This document shows, one piece after another, positions 585 through 7,916 of a stretch of DNA of 8,021 nucleotides. The stretch is from a virus (taxonomy: Monodnaviria > Loebvirae > Hofneiviricota > Faserviricetes > Tubulavirales > Inoviridae). Where the stretch lies: positions 1-8,021 of IMG/VR virus record IMGVR_UViG_2695420487_000001. One strand, written 5' to 3'. Each line of letters starts with the position of its first letter. The first letter of the stretch is position 1. The notes beneath the pieces are model-generated. The model was not told the origin of the DNA, searched no databases, and saw nothing but the letters and a program-made list of their open reading frames with translations. The position numbers were made by a program, and so were the translations under genes.

Positions 585-626
585 CCTTTTGATCCTTTTT
601 CACTGTTCAAAATTCGCGCAATAAAG

Positions 627-682: not shown

Positions 683-1129
683 TTACTCTTCGCCTGACAA
701 TGCTTTTTTCATAAACATTTTTGTACTGTAAGTATATGAACTTAATGCAGAAACTTGCCTTGCAAGTGCCAGAATATCTTGCTTCTCCAGTGTTCTGATG
801 TTCCACACGATGAAATTATGCGCGTTCGTGGTTTCTTCATCAGTATATCCGTCCGCAGAAGTTATCAGCTTTCGCTCAGTAGCTTCTTCTTTAACATCAA
901 GAGCATAGCCATAAGCTAAGGTGTTCAAATCTGCGCCAGTAATTTTAGCTATCTGAATTATATCGCTGAATTTAGGTTCAGTTTTGCCGGACGCTATCCT
1001 GACCAGCGTACTTACGCTAATGCCAGTCTTCTCGGCCAGTTCTTCATAAGTCGAGTGTTCCAGAATTGCCTTTTTTATACGTTCTGCTCTCTGTTTGTCC
1101 GCCATAACTTCATGCTCATTGTTGCCCAT
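683..1129 (-). CDS. Helix-turn-helix (XRE / Cro-C1-like) transcriptional regulator, putative prophage repressor, 148 aa
   Basis: Intact ORF. The N-terminal segment EELAEKTGISVSTLVRIASGK has a typical HTH pattern. GGAG lies 7 nt upstream of the ATG at 1129. The gene is transcribed divergently from the replication gene gII, the arrangement seen for repressors of temperate filamentous phages (e.g. CTXphi rstR). The C-terminal roughly 80 residues are unassigned. Confidence 0.8.
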   Translation of the reverse strand: MGNNEHEVMADKQRAERIKKAILEHSTYEELAEKTGISVSTLVRIASGKTEPKFSDIIQIAKITGADLNTLAYGYALDVKEEATERKLITSADGYTDEETTNAHNFIVWNIRTLEKQDILALARQVSALSSYTYSTKMFMKKALSGEE

Positions 1130-1300
1130 CTACTTCGCTCCATCTTAACAGTGGTTTTTCAATAGTCTGATTACATGCTCAGTTCTGACAATTTAAACAT
1201 TGCAAATGTATTGACTGTCAGATCTGAGCATATTACATTGTGACCATTCAATCTGCTCACAAATGACTATTGACACATATTTTGATGGGTGTGACTACTT
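1130..1300. promoter_or_regulatory. Divergent control region between repressor and gII: candidate sigma70 promoter for gII (-35 TTGACT 1211-1216, 17-bp spacer, -10 TACATT 1234-1239) overlapping a 21-nt-arm imperfect inverted repeat (1170-1190 / 1216-1236)
   Basis: Hexamers read from the sequence. The repeat arms match as reverse complements at 17 of 21 positions. A second TTGACA occurs at 1270-1275 without a convincing -10. No experimental support. Confidence 0.4.
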
Positions 1301-2353
1301 ATGATCGACTGGTTTACCGGAATTCTTCCTTGCACACACCGACCGTTACCGGCCGGTAGTGTCGTCAGCGTTGATGCTGACGGTGCAGTGGAGTGGGAAA
1401 CAGTAAAGCGGTTGACCGTTCGCGGTTCATACGAATCCACAATGAAAGTACGATCTGTTGGATCAGACGGGGAGGGCCGGGCAACTCATCTTTATATTGA
1501 CGGAAATCCGTCAAAATTTCTTCAGGGGCATTCTGTTATTGGCTCCGATGATTTGCAGGGGCTGGTATTAACCGCTTACGCAAGAATATTGGCATTACTT
1601 CATATTCCTCATGATCTACCATCCTATCGTCAGGTAATGGCAGGGCAATTTAAGATCTCACGCATTGATATTAACTACATGTATTCATTATCAACGCTGG
1701 AAAATGTCCGCGCATGGCTATATGCCGCAGAATTCAAGGCTAAAACTCGCCATGGTCGCGCCTGTGGTAAAGGTGGAACTGTTTACTTAGGGAAAAACTC
1801 CCGGCGGTGGAGCCTGAAATTTTATTCAAAATATGATGAGCATATTTCTGGTAAAAAAGGACACCAGATAGCAGAAGAGTTTGTTAAAGCTGGCTTACTT
1901 GACTGGTCTAAAGATAAATTACGAATTGAATTGACGCTAAGAACAACAGAATTAATTGACTTAAACCTTACGCTTGGCAGTAACTGGAATATCGATACTC
2001 CAAACAAATTATTCTCTGAATATGTAGGGAGAATAGAAATGAATCAAAATGCCATTTTGACCGATGAAAAAATAGTTAAACTGCCGAGAAAAATACAATC
2101 AACATATTTACTGTGGAAGCAGGGCGCAAACATGAAAGAAATGCTTCCAAAGCCAACATTTTACAGGCACCGAAAAGAATTATTGTCTTTCGGGATAGAT
2201 ATTAATTTTTATTGTGAATCCCCTGATTCAAATAATGTTGTTCCATTAGTAAGAACACTTGAAGCTAAACCAGCCCAAATCCCTACATGGGTTTATGAGA
2301 AAGGTTTTATTTTTGATTACAACCGTATTTCACATGCCAGTAACTGGCATTAA
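1301..2353 (+). CDS. gII: Replication initiation protein pII (rolling-circle nickase, Phage_CRI-type), 350 aa
   Basis: Starts MID... like fd/M13 pII. Conserved blocks recognised from memory of M13 pII: KFLQGHSVIGSDDL vs KVLQGHNVFGTTDL, KISRIDINY vs TISRIDATF, NNVVPLVR near the C-terminus. It is followed by the gV/gVII/gIX/gVIII block as in Ff/IKe. Confidence 0.9.
   Translation: MIDWFTGILPCTHRPLPAGSVVSVDADGAVEWETVKRLTVRGSYESTMKVRSVGSDGEGRATHLYIDGNPSKFLQGHSVIGSDDLQGLVLTAYARILALLHIPHDLPSYRQVMAGQFKISRIDINYMYSLSTLENVRAWLYAAEFKAKTRHGRACGKGGTVYLGKNSRRWSLKFYSKYDEHISGKKGHQIAEEFVKAGLLDWSKDKLRIELTLRTTELIDLNLTLGSNWNIDTPNKLFSEYVGRIEMNQNAILTDEKIVKLPRKIQSTYLLWKQGANMKEMLPKPTFYRHRKELLSFGIDINFYCESPDSNNVVPLVRTLEAKPAQIPTWVYEKGFIFDYNRISHASNWH
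2039..2353 (+). CDS. gX: pX-like protein from in-frame internal start within gII (C-terminal 104 aa of pII)
   Basis: ATG at 2039 is in frame with gII, and MNQNAILTDE aligns with the M13 pX start (MNIYDDSAV) by position within pII. Inferred by analogy only. Confidence 0.45.
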   Translation: MNQNAILTDEKIVKLPRKIQSTYLLWKQGANMKEMLPKPTFYRHRKELLSFGIDINFYCESPDSNNVVPLVRTLEAKPAQIPTWVYEKGFIFDYNRISHASNWH

Positions 2354-2684: not shown

Positions 2685-2771
2685 ATGGATGATGTTATTC
2701 AAATATTAATAGCATCCGGCATTGTTATTTCTTTTGGTCTTGGTGCTATTACCGCAGGTGTCATTCGTTAA
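2685..2771 (+). CDS. gVII: Minor coat protein pVII-like, 28 aa
   Basis: Small hydrophobic peptide MDDVIQILIASGIVISFGLGAITAGVIR. It starts 3 nt after the gV stop and its stop overlaps the next start (TAATG), as in Ff phages. Resembles M13 pVII (…IQISVVLCFALGIIAGGQR). Confidence 0.6.
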   Translation: MDDVIQILIASGIVISFGLGAITAGVIR

Positions 2772-2866
2772 TGTATATTGTGTATTTCTTCGGGGCTTAT
2801 ACCTTAGGATTTGCCCTTTTCTATGCGGTCGGTTCGTTTAAAACATTATCTGACCGATTAATGTAA
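2771..2866 (+). CDS. gIX: Minor coat protein pIX-like, 31 aa
   Basis: MYIVYFFGAYTLGFALFYAVGSFKTLSDRLM. AGGTG lies upstream and the start overlaps the gVII stop. Position and size match Ff pIX (…YFTRLM…). Confidence 0.6.
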   Translation: MYIVYFFGAYTLGFALFYAVGSFKTLSDRLM

Positions 2867-2895
2867 TAAAACCTAACTTAAATGGAGTTATTTAT

Positions 2896-3138
2896 ATGAA
2901 AGTCATTTCTGTTATTAAATCTAAAATTGCTGTGGCTTCAACCGCACTTTTTGTTTCTGCAAGTTGTTTTGCTGCTGATGGCGCAACGGGTAGCACTGAC
3001 TATGCAGGTCAGGCAATGGATTCACTGCTGACTCAGGCAAACGATCTTATTGCAAAAGTATGGCCTGCTGTTGTCGCTGTCGTTGGTGCGGGTCTTGCCA
3101 TTCGTTTGTTTAAAAAGTTCTCTTCGAAAGCAGTTTAA
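2896..3138 (+). CDS. gVIII: Major coat protein pVIII precursor (signal peptide plus about 54-aa mature coat), IKe-like
   Basis: GGAG 7 nt upstream. Signal peptide ends ...SASCFA. The mature part ADGATGSTDYAGQAMDSLLTQANDLIAKVWPAVVAVVGAGLAIRLFKKFSSKAV closely resembles the IKe/Ff coat (…IRLFKKFSSKAV), with acidic N-terminus, hydrophobic core and basic C-terminus. Confidence 0.9.
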   Translation: MKVISVIKSKIAVASTALFVSASCFAADGATGSTDYAGQAMDSLLTQANDLIAKVWPAVVAVVGAGLAIRLFKKFSSKAV

Positions 3139-3147
3139 AATTCACTC

Positions 3148-3171
3148 AGGGGCACTCGTTGCCCCTTTATT
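3148..3171 (+). terminator. Rho-independent terminator after gVIII (stem GGGGCA / TGCCCC, then TTTATT)
   Basis: 3149-3154 ggggca pairs with 3160-3165 tgcccc and is followed by tttatt. This is the same position as the strong terminator after gene VIII in Ff phages. Confidence 0.7.
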
Positions 3172-3184
3172 AAAGCGGGTTATT

Positions 3185-4428
3185 ATGAAAAGGAAAATAT
3201 TAATTATTTCCGCTATTCTTATTTCTTCTTTTTCACATGCTGATTCATGGGAAAGCATTACTAAATCTACTTTTCAAAGCTCTGCCTATTCTGAAAGTAA
3301 GCAAATAACCAACCAAGATGGCACTAAACAAACTGTTTATTATATTGATGCAGCTATGCAGGCTTCTGCCTGTCAGGGGGCTAAAGACAGTGCTCAGGGT
3401 GTTTTTACTCAGGTTAAACCAACTTATGAGGGAGTATGGCCTAACTCTGAATTCCGTCTTGTGTTTTCTGACGCTTGTACCTACAGCGACTCTCCGGGCC
3501 AGAAAGATAAATACTGGAATTTAACCGCTTATATTATCGGTGATATTCAGCGTTCTATTCCTGATGAAAAACCCTCCGAGCCTACACCTGAAGAAATTTG
3601 TGAAGCTAAACCTCCTGAAGAAGGTGTATTTAATAATGTCTATCTTATGATGGTGATCGTTATATTTATTATAACGGTTGTGAATATGAGGCCACTGGCG
3701 TCATTGTTTGCCAGGGTGATGGCACTGTTTGTGCGGCGACATGGAAGCCTACCGGAACCGTAGCCGATCCTTCAGATAAGCCTTCTTCTCCTGCTGGCGA
3801 TGGTGGGGATACTGGAGGCGGGGATACGGGGGGTGGTGATACTGGAGGAGGTGATACAGGCGGTGGTAACTCAGGTGGCGGTAACTCAGGTGGTAATGGC
3901 TCAAGTATTACCAAAGGAGATATTCAGTCAGCTATTGAAGGTGCTTCACCTAAAATGGCCAGTGAGATTCATGATAAGTTAACAGAAAAAGACACCTCAT
4001 CTGATGATAAAAAATCGGCTGATGAACAGACTAAAAATAATATAAATCGTCTTGGTGACGCTATAAATAACCTTACTCGCGGAGCCGGACGTTTTGCTGA
4101 TCCTTCTGGCGGTGATTCTCGTTATGGGAAAGGGGATTCCGAATTAGACAGTGCTTCAACATTGGCTGAATCCGAATTAGGAATAGCTAAAGATTCTCAT
4201 GGTGCTTTATGGGAAGCATTCCTGAATAAAGGTGCTATGCTCCCTAGTTTACCTAATGGTAATGGTTGTTCTGAACTTGTTATTTTCCCCGGTGAAATTT
4301 ATCAGATTGATATTGAATGCGATAAATTACTTACTATCAAAGATGCGCTTTCATGGATTTTTTATTGCCTTACCTTCTGGTATGTATTTACGTCTTTAAC
4401 CTCATTACTTCGTAAAGGAGGTGAGTAA
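3185..4428 (+). CDS. gIII: Adsorption / minor coat protein pIII, interrupted by a frameshift (N-terminal part in frame 2 to about 3643, remainder in frame 1 from about 3646); pseudogene or sequencing error
   Basis: Signal peptide [19 protein letters not shown]. The span 3185..4428 is 1244 nt, not a multiple of 3. Frame 1 after the shift gives [37 protein letters not shown] (like the fd N1 motif DRYANYEGCLWNATGVVVCTGDETQCYGTW), a Gly-rich linker (GGDTGGG repeats) and a C-terminal domain ending …[36 protein letters not shown] (like fd …CDKINLFRGVFAFLLYVATFMYVFSTFANILRNKES). Frame 1 has no start codon near the shift, so the two parts are one gene. Confidence 0.8.
3796..3900. repeat. Tandem near-identical short repeats encoding the glycine-rich linker of pIII (GGDTGGG x4, GGNSGG x2)
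   Basis: Direct reading: ggtggggatactggaggc / ggggatacggggggt / ggtgatactggagga / ggtgatacaggcggt / ggtaactcaggtggc / ggtaactcaggtggt. The reverse complement produces the spurious proline-rich ORF 3669..3914. Confidence 0.8.
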
Positions 4429-4769
4429 TGCCTTTATTATTAGGTATTCCTGCACTATTGCGTTTTCTTATTGGGCTTGTTCCTTTATTTATTGGCTATG
4501 TGGCAAGCTTCCTCGCACGCCTTGCGACTAAAACAGGATTGATAGCTGTAGCATTAGTTGCATTAATTACAACAACTGTCACTCTCTTAATGCAATATCT
4601 TGCTGAGGTTATGTACAATGGCCTTCCTGCTGATTTTTCACATTTAATTGCATCTGTCTTACCAGACCATTTTCAGGCCTGTGTTAATGTCATTATGATT
4701 ACTCGAATTAGCGTTTTTGTTTTCGATTTAAAACAAAAATTCCTTGATTATGCAAACAAGGTGATTTGA
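4428..4769 (+). CDS. gVI: Minor coat protein pVI, 113 aa
   Basis: [16 protein letters not shown]… resembles M13 pVI MPVLLGIPLLLRFLGF…, and …VFVFDLKQKF resembles …IFIFDVKQKI. Strong AAGGAGGTGA Shine-Dalgarno. The start overlaps the gIII stop and the stop overlaps the gI start. Confidence 0.9.
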   Translation: MPLLLGIPALLRFLIGLVPLFIGYVASFLARLATKTGLIAVALVALITTTVTLLMQYLAEVMYNGLPADFSHLIASVLPDHFQACVNVIMITRISVFVFDLKQKFLDYANKVI

Positions 4770-5864
4770 ATGACGGTTCATGTCGTAACAGGGAAATTAG
4801 GTTCAGGTAAGACACTGGTTAGTGTTGCCAGAATACAGGAAAGACTAGCTAAAGGCTGTCCTGTAGCCACTAATCTAGATATTAAACTACATAATATGCC
4901 CATGGTTGGTCGTTATGCGAAAAAAACACGCGTGATTCGTGTCCCTGACAAACCTTCATTAAATGATCTGCTGGCTATTGGTGTAGGCAATACTTCCTAT
5001 GATGAATCACGTAATGGTCTACTGGTTCTTGATGAATGTGGGACTTGGTTTAATTCCCGTTCGTGGGGGGATAAAGACAGACAGCCAGTTATTGACTGGT
5101 TTTTGCATGCCCGTAAATTAGGCTGGGATATTATTTTTCTGATTCAGGATATTTCGATTATGGACAAGCAAGCACGGCTGGCGCTTGCGGAGCATGTTGT
5201 TTATTGTCGTCGTTCAGATAAGTTAAACATCCCATTTATTGGTTCTTTCATGAATATAATTTCAGGTGCTCGTTTTTCTTTACCAAAGGTTCACTTTGGT
5301 ATTGTTAAATATGGTGACAACGTTAATTCAATAACTGTTGATAAATGGATGTATACCGGAAAGTCATTATATTCCGCCTACAATACAAAACAGGCTTTTA
5401 CTGATAATTATCCGCATGGTGCTTATTCGCTTTTGCCGCCATTTATTACACATGGTCAGTTTTCCGTTAACAAAGGGTTTAATTATTATATGCGCCTCAC
5501 GAAAATTTACTTTCGAAAATCAAACCGATTAATATTAATGCTTTCATTTCTGGCATTGGGGCTTGGACTTGGCTTCTGGCTACAATCTGGTAAGAATGCT
5601 GATGAGATTTCGGCTATTAAATCTGCTCATGCTGAACAGGTGAGGGCAGTAACTCCTGACAGTACCAGCGATTTACCGAGACTATCAATTAATTCCTTCT
5701 CTCAACTTGGTTTTGATGTTTCCGTTACGTTTGTTGATGCTAAGGGTATGAAGTACCAGTATTTTGATTTAATTAAAGATGGTTATTCTGTTGATATTAA
5801 AGATGCCTGCCGAATTGTTATCAGAAAAGGCCGTTATTTACAAAACATCACCTGCCAGGAGTAA
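4770..5864 (+). CDS. gI: Assembly protein pI (Zot-like P-loop ATPase), 364 aa
   Basis: Walker A motif GKLGSGKT at the N-terminus. Long stretches nearly identical to remembered M13 pI (VTGKLGSGKTLVSV, LLVLDECGTWFNSRSW, IDWFLHARKLGWDIIFL, DKQARLALAEHVVYCRR). C-terminal TM segment LILMLSFLALGLGLGFWL. Confidence 0.95.
   Translation: MTVHVVTGKLGSGKTLVSVARIQERLAKGCPVATNLDIKLHNMPMVGRYAKKTRVIRVPDKPSLNDLLAIGVGNTSYDESRNGLLVLDECGTWFNSRSWGDKDRQPVIDWFLHARKLGWDIIFLIQDISIMDKQARLALAEHVVYCRRSDKLNIPFIGSFMNIISGARFSLPKVHFGIVKYGDNVNSITVDKWMYTGKSLYSAYNTKQAFTDNYPHGAYSLLPPFITHGQFSVNKGFNYYMRLTKIYFRKSNRLILMLSFLALGLGLGFWLQSGKNADEISAIKSAHAEQVRAVTPDSTSDLPRLSINSFSQLGFDVSVTFVDAKGMKYQYFDLIKDGYSVDIKDACRIVIRKGRYLQNITCQE
5490..5864 (+). 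CDS. gXI: pXI-like protein from in-frame internal start within gI (codon 241)
   Basis: MRLTKIYFRKS aligns with the M13 pXI start MKLTKIYLKKFS. It is in frame with gI. No obvious Shine-Dalgarno, so expression is inferred only by analogy. Confidence 0.45.
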   Translation: MRLTKIYFRKSNRLILMLSFLALGLGLGFWLQSGKNADEISAIKSAHAEQVRAVTPDSTSDLPRLSINSFSQLGFDVSVTFVDAKGMKYQYFDLIKDGYSVDIKDACRIVIRKGRYLQNITCQE

Positions 5865-5871
5865 TATTATT

Positions 5872-7137
5872 ATGCGTTTATTTTTCATTGCTATCTTATT
5901 CACTTATTCTTTTTGCGTTTCTGCTGAAACTGTTAACCTGAATAATTCATCCGTTCGCTCATTTGTCCAGTGGTATTCATCAAAAACTGGCAAGCCCGTT
6001 ATTGTTAATCCTGATGTTAAAGGAACCGTAACGGTATTTAATGCTGATGTTAATCCCACAAATATTGATAGTTTCTTCAAATCTGTACTGAATGCTAACG
6101 GATTTGTCATGCTTTCGGGTAATCCTGCAGTAGTCTCTTTGCCGTCAAAATTACCATCACAGATGGCGTCAGACCTTGATGATGCTGATATTCGGTCTTA
6201 TGACTCTTTCCCGTCTGAGCCATCTTATCAGCCAGCGCCAGTGGAGTTTACTGTCAGAAATTTTAAGCTGACAAAAGTTCGATCGTCTGATGTTCAGCAA
6301 CTGGTTAAAATTTATCTGGATTCTAATGGCGGGGGTAATGTTGTGGATTATCCTGGCAATAACTCCCTGATTGTTTCCGCACCTGATGAGCTGCTTCCCG
6401 TCCTTTCCGATTTCATCAATTCAGTGGATGTTGCCCGCGATCAGGTTTTGATTCAGTCGCTGATGTTTGAAACCAGTCTGTCGGATGGTGTTGATTTGTC
6501 GTTTGCAGCCGGTTCTGCATCCGGGCATAAAGTAGCAGGGGGCTTTAATACTTCAGCATTGGGTAGCGCATTGTCGACTGCCGGCGGCTCTTTTGGCATT
6601 TTTGATGGTAATGTTCTGGCCGTATCCCTGCGTGCGGTGCAGAGTAACTCCCGGTCTAAGGTGATTTCAACGCCCCGGATTCTTACCCAGTCTGGTCAGA
6701 CAGGCTATATTTCTGTTGGTAAAAATGTACCCTTTATCACGGGTAAAGTTACGGGTGAATCTGCCGGGGTAAATAATCCGTTTCAGACCATTGAACGTCA
6801 TGATGTTGGCGTATCTCTGAAGGTGACGCCTGTTGTTATGGGGAACGGCCAGCTTGTACTTACTATTGATACCCGCGCTGATTCCATCAGCAACGATGAC
6901 CAGGCATCTGATATTATTACGAACCAGCGTCAGATACAGACAACAGTTCAGATTAAGGATGGCCAGACGCTCTTACTTGGTGGGCTGATTGATTCATCAT
7001 CCAGCAATGCTGACCGTTCTGTACCGTTTATCAGTAAAATTCCGGTGATTGGCTGGCTTTTCAGGAGTAAAGCTGACAGTAATGAGCAACGCATTATGTA
7101 TGTTCTGCTGACCGCTCATATTATTCGCGCGCTTTGA
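5872..7137 (+). CDS. gIV: Outer-membrane secretin pIV (phage assembly/export channel), 421 aa
   Basis: Start chosen at MRLFFIAILFTYSFCVSA (signal peptide) with AGGAG about 10 nt upstream; the track ORF start at 5779 lies inside gI. Secretin blocks closely match remembered M13 pIV: VIVNPDVKGTVTVF, SGQTGYISVGKNVPFITGKVTGESAGVNNPFQTIERHDVGVSLKV, DGQTLLLGGL, VPFISKIPVIGWLF. Confidence 0.95.
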   Translation: MRLFFIAILFTYSFCVSAETVNLNNSSVRSFVQWYSSKTGKPVIVNPDVKGTVTVFNADVNPTNIDSFFKSVLNANGFVMLSGNPAVVSLPSKLPSQMASDLDDADIRSYDSFPSEPSYQPAPVEFTVRNFKLTKVRSSDVQQLVKIYLDSNGGGNVVDYPGNNSLIVSAPDELLPVLSDFINSVDVARDQVLIQSLMFETSLSDGVDLSFAAGSASGHKVAGGFNTSALGSALSTAGGSFGIFDGNVLAVSLRAVQSNSRSKVISTPRILTQSGQTGYISVGKNVPFITGKVTGESAGVNNPFQTIERHDVGVSLKVTPVVMGNGQLVLTIDTRADSISNDDQASDIITNQRQIQTTVQIKDGQTLLLGGLIDSSSSNADRSVPFISKIPVIGWLFRSKADSNEQRIMYVLLTAHIIRAL

Positions 7138-7287
7138 TGGGGCCGTGGCGGGTGCGTTAAGCCCCGGTATGGCCACATCAAGAGCCGGATTTTACGTTTC
7201 ACCACGGAGCCTCTATATGGCCTTAAAACTGACAGGATATGAACAGAAAGACATCTTCTAGGTAATTCAATTACTTAGAGGTTTTTT

Positions 7288-7536: not shown

Positions 7537-7916
7537 ACTTTTTAGCCGCTAAAATTTAATGCTTACGAAGTTATCGTAAACTCCGGTCAGTGACAAAACT
7601 CGTTTTGTTGCTGTCCGGGGTTGGCCAAGCCGTACAGTTTTCATTTTGAGCGTTATAGCTGATTCGGCGCGGCAGCGTTCATCTTATCTGACATTGTGGC
7701 TGTATTTCTGGGGAAGGTTTCATGTATCAGGTACAGATTTACCAACTGCAACTGGATGAACAGGCCTGATTGGTGAGGTCAGGCCGTTCACTTACTGCTG
7801 ACAGACATTTGATTCTGATTCGTCTGGAGAAACGGATGATTTTGAATCACTGTCGATAGTTGCCAGTTGACGCCAAGTGTCAACGATTCCCGCCAGATTC
7901 TGCCATCCTTACCATT

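Follow-up and report, generated by a model that had tools for sequence, protein, structure and literature searches.

Does the intergenic region upstream of the initiator gene gII in a filamentous prophage hold the replication origin, the operator of the phage repressor, or both? This question is raised by an 8,021-nucleotide (nt) stretch of DNA from an inovirus (IMG/VR record IMGVR_UViG_2695420487_000001), hereafter referred to in its entirety as the window. The gene set and genome comparison identify the window as a filamentous prophage of the CUS-1/YpfPhi/UPPhi type of Escherichia coli. According to the layout of its open reading frames (ORFs), a repressor gene (683-1129, minus strand) and gII (1301-2353, plus strand) are divergently transcribed across a gap of 171 bp (1130-1300). 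The repressor is a 148-amino-acid (aa) Cro/CI-type helix-turn-helix (HTH) protein with matches to Pfam HTH_3 (1.4e-09) and Phage_CI_repr (1.9e-4) and to PHROG 3557 "transcriptional regulator" (6.9e-74). gII encodes the rolling-circle initiator pII (350 aa), with the Pfam domains Phage_CRI (2e-72) and G2P_X_C (6.9e-33). A preliminary description had pointed to a string at 1141-1170 that resembles the nick region of the Ff phages and to an adjacent palindrome of roughly 70 nt, and had left open whether this was the origin, the operator, or an overlap of the two. Our analysis indicates that 1130-1300 is probably the regulatory half of an immunity cassette, carrying repressor operators and the gII promoter, rather than an origin; the repressor gene forms the other, left half. 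The plus-strand origin [ori(+)] most likely consists of a hairpin (627-655) and the inverted repeat that follows it (657-672).

The repressor gene and the intergenic region (683-1300) are inherited and replaced together as a cassette. Between the hairpin, which closely follows the repressor gene on its 3' side, and the start of gII, at least three unrelated inserts were found. Type A, the type of the window, consists of the 148-aa HTH repressor and the 171-bp intergenic region with the palindrome. Type B encodes a 150-aa HTH repressor, 40% identical to that of type A and with a different recognition helix, next to an unrelated intergenic region with three copies of a AACAAATGTGTCAC-like motif. 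Type C encodes a 60-aa protein and has another unrelated intergenic region with three to four copies of TGAACTCA. In other type A loci, pII is 90-96% identical to that of the window (100% in an identical E. coli copy); the corresponding values are 92-96% for type B and 87-89% for type C. In blastn searches, the repressor and intergenic region of the window were found only in YpfPhi loci of Yersinia pestis; the 5' end of gII and the hairpin segment (600-690) were found in Klebsiella, Brenneria, and others. No homologue of the palindrome was detected upstream of gII in type B or C, and blastn of 1130-1300 gave no match in type B, type C, or I2-2-type loci (pII 55-96% identical). Also, the region upstream of gII in these three groups of loci contained no string within three mismatches of TTAACAGTGG, the nick-like 10-mer of the window (1145-1154, plus strand). 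A sequence that pII requires in cis cannot differ from one cassette to the next, whereas repressor operators should do so; TTAACAGTGG and the palindrome are therefore unlikely to be the cis site of pII. The proposal of an origin between the repressor gene and gII did not hold up in this comparison, as the motif and the palindrome are missing beside gII in phages with nearly the same initiator.

The palindrome itself is real. As located by a repeat finder, it spans 1175-1231 and is the strongest inverted repeat in the whole window, with 27-nt arms (1175-1201 and 1205-1231) that are complementary at 22 of 27 positions (81%) and are separated by a 3-nt spacer centered at 1203. In 300 first-order Markov sequences of the length of the window, the best inverted repeat with 27-nt arms did not exceed 20/27. 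The arms originally noted, 1170-1190 and 1216-1236, are complementary at 17 of 21 positions, exactly as described; what had been understated is the size and strength of the repeat, the 27-nt arms being nearly continuous. The hairpin that had been proposed for single-stranded DNA (ssDNA) was also predicted to be stable, with a folding energy of -15.3 kcal/mol (z = -4.08) that was equaled in none of 200 shuffles. Across eight distinct type A variants, whose gap-free alignment was used for the conservation footprint, arm complementarity ranged from 19 to 22 of 27 without consistent compensatory change. Since complementarity drifts without systematic compensation, two separately constrained protein sites are favored over a selected hairpin.

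The arms correspond to two inverted copies of the motif TGCTCA-N4-TGAC(A/T), of which a third copy lies further right. Operator-like site 1, TGCTCAGTTCTGACA (1176-1190, plus strand), is in the left arm, and site 2, TGCTCAGATCTGACA (1216-1230, minus strand), is in the right arm, within the spacer of the predicted gII promoter. Site 3, TGCTCACAAATGACT (1254-1268, plus strand), is direct repeat D1; it is not part of the palindrome and is found shortly after the position, near 1246, at which the gII transcript is predicted to start. TGCTCA-N4-TGAC occurs three times in the 8-kb window, always in the repressor-gII intergenic region, against 0.02 expected, an enrichment that is partly circular because the motif was derived from the counted sites and that to this extent tells against the operator assignment. 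In the footprint, TGCTCA (1176-1181) and TTCTGACAA (1183-1191) of site 1 were invariant beside the variable interval 1162-1175. The segments TTGACTGTCAGA (1210-1222), TGAGCATATTACATT (1225-1239), GCTCA (1255-1259), TGACTATTGAC (1264-1274), 1138-1153, and 1155-1161 were likewise invariant, and 1240-1253 was the other variable interval. In site 3, the TGCTCA and TGAC positions were kept except for 1254 in one of the eight variants, and the N4 varied. The predicted sigma-70-like promoter of gII (1211-1239, plus strand) consists of the -35 hexamer TTGACT (1211-1216), a 17-nt spacer, and the -10 hexamer TACATT (1234-1239). It was the sole promoter-like match on either strand of 600-1400, and both hexamers were invariant in all eight variants.

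Because the repressor and the intergenic region swap as one and the motif copies overlap the conserved gII promoter, the palindrome most likely represents two repressor operators placed at this promoter, as in the rstR/ig-2 region of the Vibrio cholerae phage CTXphi. The operator option of the preliminary description thus gains support of a comparative kind, namely, the co-exchanged cassette, the three-copy motif, and the overlapping conserved promoter. A divergent HTH repressor gene, repeated sites over a promoter, and the joint exchange of repressor and operators are the features of a temperate-phage immunity region, and an immunity switch is the expected kind of system for a temperate filamentous phage.

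We infer from the sequence that the 148-aa repressor would bind all three sites. Sites 1 and 2, being inverted, would make the region read as a palindrome of ~60-70 nt, with site 3 located 38 bp further right. Site 2 would occupy the spacer between the -35 and -10 hexamers of the gII promoter, and site 3 would lie over the start of the transcript, so that repressor binding would silence gII together with the phage genes downstream of it, maintain the prophage in a quiescent state, and provide immunity against phages that carry the same cassette. Site 1, on the side of the repressor gene, would probably govern the repressor's own weak leftward promoter. Rolling-circle replication would most likely start ~500 nt to the left, at the hairpin, and proceed rightwards. 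The earlier designation of the intergenic region as the control hub of the element thus suits transcription and immunity but does not extend to the initiation of replication.

The candidate origin hairpin has the sequence AACGTGCAGTGTT-GGT-AATACTGCACGTT on the plus strand and is directly followed by the second inverted repeat, GTCTCA-TTCC-TGAGAC, which takes the position of the pII-binding repeat of Ff. Folded together, the two gave -16 kcal/mol (z = -6.09). The hairpin was found next to gII in all cassette types and accompanies every relative of gII that was compared, down to that of I2-2. When the I2-2 intergenic region was compared with the window by sensitive blastn, the single significant match, and the only non-coding one, was at 626-651, not upstream of gII. 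Loci from IMG/VR and metagenomes were fetched with patterns containing the hairpin core, and invariance among these is partly built in; the independent evidence for conservation comes from loci fetched by pII (L003-L011). Among those fetched by pII alone (L003-L008 and L011; Klebsiella, Y. pestis, Brenneria, and others), every intact copy has the hairpin together with the 5' end of gII. In L010, a degraded copy from Photorhabdus whose gII is truncated at about residue 109, the left arm is all that remains of the hairpin. The stem and most of the loop, in which two positions vary, are unchanged from I2-2-type phages (pII ~55-57% identical) to identical phages. In the second repeat, two base pairs are changed on both sides in relatives (GTCTCA/TGAGAC to GTACCA/TGGTAC), and one metagenomic variant (L173) has a compensatory change of C-G to T-A in the main stem. 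A comparison with the M13 core origin anchored at T642^A643 gave 21 identities in 42 nt, which places the hairpin in the top 10 of 15,958 positions. It reads ...GGT AATAC TGCAC in place of ...TTT AATAG TGGAC in Ff, and an inverted repeat follows immediately 3' in both. The left flank, GTTCAAAAtTCGCgCAAT (600-626, plus strand), is partly conserved in CUS-1/UPPhi/YpfPhi-type loci despite their different accessory genes. It may be part of the origin, of which the hairpin would then be only a portion, or the promoter or leader of a 140-aa ORF.

Furthermore, three independent deletion or duplication junctions were found in which the right half of the hairpin loop follows unrelated phage DNA; all lie within G641-T642-A643. 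In a Klebsiella locus (L003), ...CCCGT is joined to AATACTGCACG, which starts with AATAC (native partner CCCGTATATG). In an IMG/VR locus (L027), ...ACAGT from within gII is joined to AATAC (native sequence ACAGTAAAGC, window 1400-1409), and in a metagenomic locus (L156), the left partner is ...CAAGT from within gVIII (native sequence CAAGTGGTG). All three left partners end in GT, and the shared letters limit the crossover to the bonds 640/641, 641/642, or 642/643. The products are head-to-tail partial duplications starting at the loop, which fits aberrant termination of rolling-circle synthesis begun there; similar junctions occur at the pII nick site in f1 miniphages. The predicted nick lies within G641-T642-A643, where both T^A, as in Ff, and G^T, as in CTXphi, would fit. 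The locus 627-672 thus combines a viral-strand hairpin and an inverted repeat, conservation with the initiator across unrelated flanks, and junctions at a fixed point.

Several other sequences bear some relation to this hairpin. Within gII, GGTGCAGTGGAGTGGGAAACAGTAAAGC (1384-1409) resembles its left arm and loop (GTGCAGTG...GTAA), and in L027, this sequence is the left partner of the 754-bp tandem duplication joined to the loop. An IMG/VR contig of 7030 nt (L066) has GTAATACTGCACG as its exact start and the dif half-site GGTGCGCATAATGTA as its end, which could reflect another break at the loop or an assembly artefact. We rejected the idea that the hairpin is a mere terminator: one variant was flagged as terminator-like on the plus strand but the window copy was not, and a terminator leaves the nearly invariant loop and the three junctions unexplained. 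The 11-mer CACGTTCTTTA at 621-631 on the minus strand matches the M13 nick region exactly, but it was set aside as a chance match because it is on the wrong strand and its CTTTA part is not conserved in relatives. The Ff-type pII-binding element ACTCTTGT was found neither in the window nor in its complete relatives; its sole occurrences were a degenerate copy in I2-2 and those in small Rep_1 plasmids.

Could the nick site of pII nevertheless lie at 1141-1170, with the palindrome as the pII-binding or hairpin part of an origin? The window's pII belongs to the Ff pII family, and the Ff origin is situated directly upstream of gII. The 10-mer TTAACAGTGG, which is inside the repressor leader, matches the M13 nick sequence TTAATAGTGG (checked against the M13 record) at nine of 10 positions on the correct, viral strand. 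It is also nearly invariant among type A cassettes, which speaks for an origin. The string match reported in the preliminary description was thus confirmed, apart from the trivial point that the quoted 31 letters start at 1140 rather than 1141, but the likeness to the Ff nick region does not exceed chance. With up to one mismatch allowed, one match was seen in the window against 0.73 expected, and 105 of 200 shuffles had at least one. The 41 nt around the motif (1135-1175) showed no hairpin potential (-0.9 kcal/mol, z = +0.29), and the nick-anchored extension to 42 nt matched the M13 core origin at only 15 positions, the window-wide mean being 10.8. In Ff, pII cuts T^A in the loop of hairpin D (TTCTTT^AATAGTGG), and a pII-binding inverted repeat follows; by contrast, the TTAACAGTGG region shares the 10-nt string only, lacks both a hairpin and a neighboring ACTCTTGT repeat, and is not retained alongside pII in relatives. 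No rearrangement junction was seen at TTAACAGTGG in about 50 type A copies, compared with the three in the loop of the 627-655 hairpin. The ori(+) of CTXphi lies on the far side of rstR, in ig-1. That phage has the same gene order as the window, and in the published scheme its ori(+) hairpin, nicked by RstA between G and T in the apical loop, is drawn next to rstR (Fig 6A, PMC4439123), which also argues against a site upstream of gII. Together with the absence of the motif and the palindrome upstream of gII in phages whose pII is up to 96% identical, these observations make an origin at 1141-1170 very unlikely, and TTAACAGTGG is most likely a chance resemblance inside the 5' leader of the repressor.

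Two further explanations concern the palindrome and its surroundings. The region might chiefly be a platform for host proteins (RovA/SlyA, H-NS, or IHF), with the phage repressor acting elsewhere or indirectly. In YpfPhi, RovA binds the promoter region of YPO2274 (gII) and its loss raises phage-gene transcription, according to the passage on RovA in a review (PMC4266046), and the center of the palindrome (1190-1212) is AT-rich. However, host factors leave unexplained both the co-exchange of the intergenic region with the repressor gene and the three-fold, cassette-specific motif. We regard this explanation as unlikely; host factors are compatible with the immunity switch as an extra layer of control, not as its replacement. 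Alternatively, the palindrome might act mainly as a hairpin in viral ssDNA, either as a minus-strand origin or priming site or as a duplex of sites 1 and 2 that a resident repressor binds on incoming ssDNA. Apart from the stable predicted fold, this agrees with the pairing of site 1 with site 2 in the hairpin, which has a single mismatch and is perfect in one variant (L015) whose N4 is identical in both sites. By contrast, the palindrome is confined to the type A cassette (type C has direct repeats only, and the type B arms are 92 nt apart), whereas a minus-strand origin should be common to all relatives. The drifting arm complementarity adds to this, and the -35 hexamer sits in an internal loop of the fold, so the hairpin is no promoter mimic. 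A main role as an ssDNA hairpin therefore appears quite improbable. We would give very little weight to the specific notion that sites 1 and 2 pair in packaged ssDNA, so that a single double-stranded operator is restored where a 57-nt hairpin has its tip, by which a resident repressor could recognize incoming DNA before the complementary strand is made. If true, such an operator would move immunity, or a block of priming, to the single-stranded stage and would give a reason for a long palindrome in place of separate operators.

The interpretation of 1130-1300 as an immunity switch also has difficulties of its own. The motif TGCTCA-N4-TGAC lacks clean dyad symmetry, an unusual property in the operator of a dimeric HTH repressor. 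Among the type A repressors found, identity was never below 92%, leaving no spread in which recognition helix and operator could be seen to co-vary. The repressor's own promoter is a further weak point, since the scan of 600-1400 gave no minus-strand match and no convincing conserved -35/-10 pair. By eye, TTGTCA-18-GACTAT and the extended -10 TGTTAAGAT are candidates, but the latter, the only conserved one, would leave the mRNA nearly leaderless. TGTTAAGAT is on the minus strand in the conserved repressor-leader block (1138-1161, minus strand), which also contains the nick-like 10-mer and is nearly invariant in the eight variants, one differing at 1154. The Shine-Dalgarno sequence of the repressor, GGAG, corresponds to the minus strand of 1138-1141 and precedes the ATG at 1129 by 8 nt. 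The block is nevertheless conserved beyond the needs of a simple leader, which suggests a role beyond the Shine-Dalgarno sequence. All of these points weigh against the switch in its simple form.

Among characterized systems, the immunity region of CTXphi (rstR - ig-2 - rstA) is similar in having a leftward repressor gene, a rightward initiator gene, and a short intergenic region with the initiator promoter. Kimsey and Waldor reportedly found that the CTXphi repressor and intergenic region co-vary among heteroimmune phages. The joint variation of the two, with a conserved initiator, is also described in PMC4439123. The systems differ in that PrstA is under SOS control, whereas the window's intergenic region has no LexA box (no CTGT-N8-ACAG with up to one mismatch in 1130-1300), in the operator motif, and in the initiator, the window's pII being of the Ff Phage_CRI family. 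The OR region of phage lambda, with its divergent promoters PRM and PR and three CI operators, likewise has a CI-type HTH repressor gene divergent from lytic or replication genes, three related sites within ~90 bp over the rightward promoter, and a leftward promoter that seems weak. By contrast, the sites in the window are not clean 17-bp dyads and are ~38-40 bp apart from center to center, whereas those of lambda are adjacent, and no Cro-like antagonist was identified in the window. For YpfPhi, the review PMC4266046 describes the region between the repressor gene and gII as "believed to be involved in transcription initiation," compares the repressor homologue YPO2273 with RstR, and states that the role of the repressor awaits demonstration. 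This 2014 review makes no mention of the YpfPhi origin, and its statement on regulation is a guess only.

With respect to replication, I2-2 (Lineavirus) is the one close pII relative among sequenced phages (57% identity). The replication module of I2-2 is said to have been described by Stassen et al. in 1992 as exchanged relative to IKe/Ff. Its hairpin and the following repeat are 84-92% identical to those of the window, and it also has a small leftward ORF between the hairpin and gII. Unlike the window, I2-2 has no HTH repressor, palindrome, or nick-like 10-mer upstream of gII and is non-integrating. The small ORF of I2-2 (L011, 2720-2918) is split by a frame break and resembles the 60-aa protein of type C. 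In addition, 85 nt upstream of its hairpin, which is of the GTAATAC type, I2-2 carries a degenerate Ff-like core-origin element (2535-2585; TTCTTT...GTACTCTTGTTGCAAAATCGCAAC). No ACTCTTGT element was present anywhere in the window, in contrast to Ff. Three metagenome contigs (L143, L147, and L151) are small Rep_1-encoding plasmids with a filamentous-phage-like intergenic region. In these, an intact Ff-type nick hairpin (GTCCAC TCTGTTTAATA GTGGAC) with the ACTCTTGT repeat precedes a GTAATAC hairpin by no more than ~10 nt, and the region also holds a hairpin resembling a packaging signal. Such plasmids may serve as natural phagemids that can make use of helper phages of two kinds. We read the Ff-type and GTAATAC hairpins as probably two distinct types of origin, which stand side by side in the plasmids, with I2-2 keeping an Ff relic after the exchange of its replication module.

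The window contains a full filamentous-phage gene set as judged from the ORF list and a Pfam scan, namely, the leftward repressor gene, gII, gV, small coat genes, gVIII, gIII, gVI, a Zot-type gI, the secretin gene gIV, and an 82-aa ORF. From about base 91 on, it matches one copy of a tandem prophage beside hipBA in E. coli SCPM-O-B-12142, from which it differs by two substitutions and a 1-nt deletion. The deletion, at ~3643, leaves the attachment-protein gene gIII in two frames (ORFs 3050-3763 and 3955-4428), reflecting either a defective phage or a sequencing error. At the left end (1-~91), the phage accessory region borders on the tip of an IS1 element; in the reference strain, the 370-aa ORF of this region begins 37 bp further left. 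The genome is a mosaic. Segment 600-1400 is 94% identical to prophage CUS-1 of UTI89, and the repressor/gII/gV module (1301-2682 compared) is ~94-96% identical to CUS-1/YpfPhi. The structural and assembly genes (2686-7137) are of the I2-2/UPPhi type, unlike those of CUS-1 in UTI89.

Three further non-coding elements were noted downstream of these genes. A GC-rich hairpin directly 3' of gIV (7141-7175) aligns with the annotated "morphogenetic signal" of I2-2, with the common core GGTGCGTTA..GCCC, and is probably the packaging signal. A second hairpin (7579-7622), located after the 82-aa ORF in non-coding DNA, has 21-nt arms (-13.2 kcal/mol, z = -4.3) and is a candidate for the minus-strand origin or for part of attP. 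The segment 7917-7996 carries the initial 15 nt of E. coli dif (GGTGCGCATAATGTA) and, after them, an inverted repeat (24-nt arms) that includes the XerD-arm-like TTATGTTGAAA together with its partner. There is no complete dif, and the arrangement agrees with what has been described for YpfPhi and UPPhi as an imperfect junction between copies or attP. A search of Rfam gave no match across the window.

Phages of the CUS-1, YpfPhi, and UPPhi type sit at dif in extra-intestinal E. coli, Y. pestis, and other Enterobacterales. For these phages, the present analysis provides coordinates for a predicted gII promoter and three candidate operators, which are expected to set the immunity type, as well as a candidate ori(+) in which natural mini-genome junctions narrow the predicted nick to three phosphodiester bonds. 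This candidate origin bears on how tandem prophages give rise to virions and to truncated, satellite-like copies, and on the building of phagemids for this pII subfamily. The existence of at least three swappable immunity cassettes, in turn, predicts which prophages would exclude which incoming phages.

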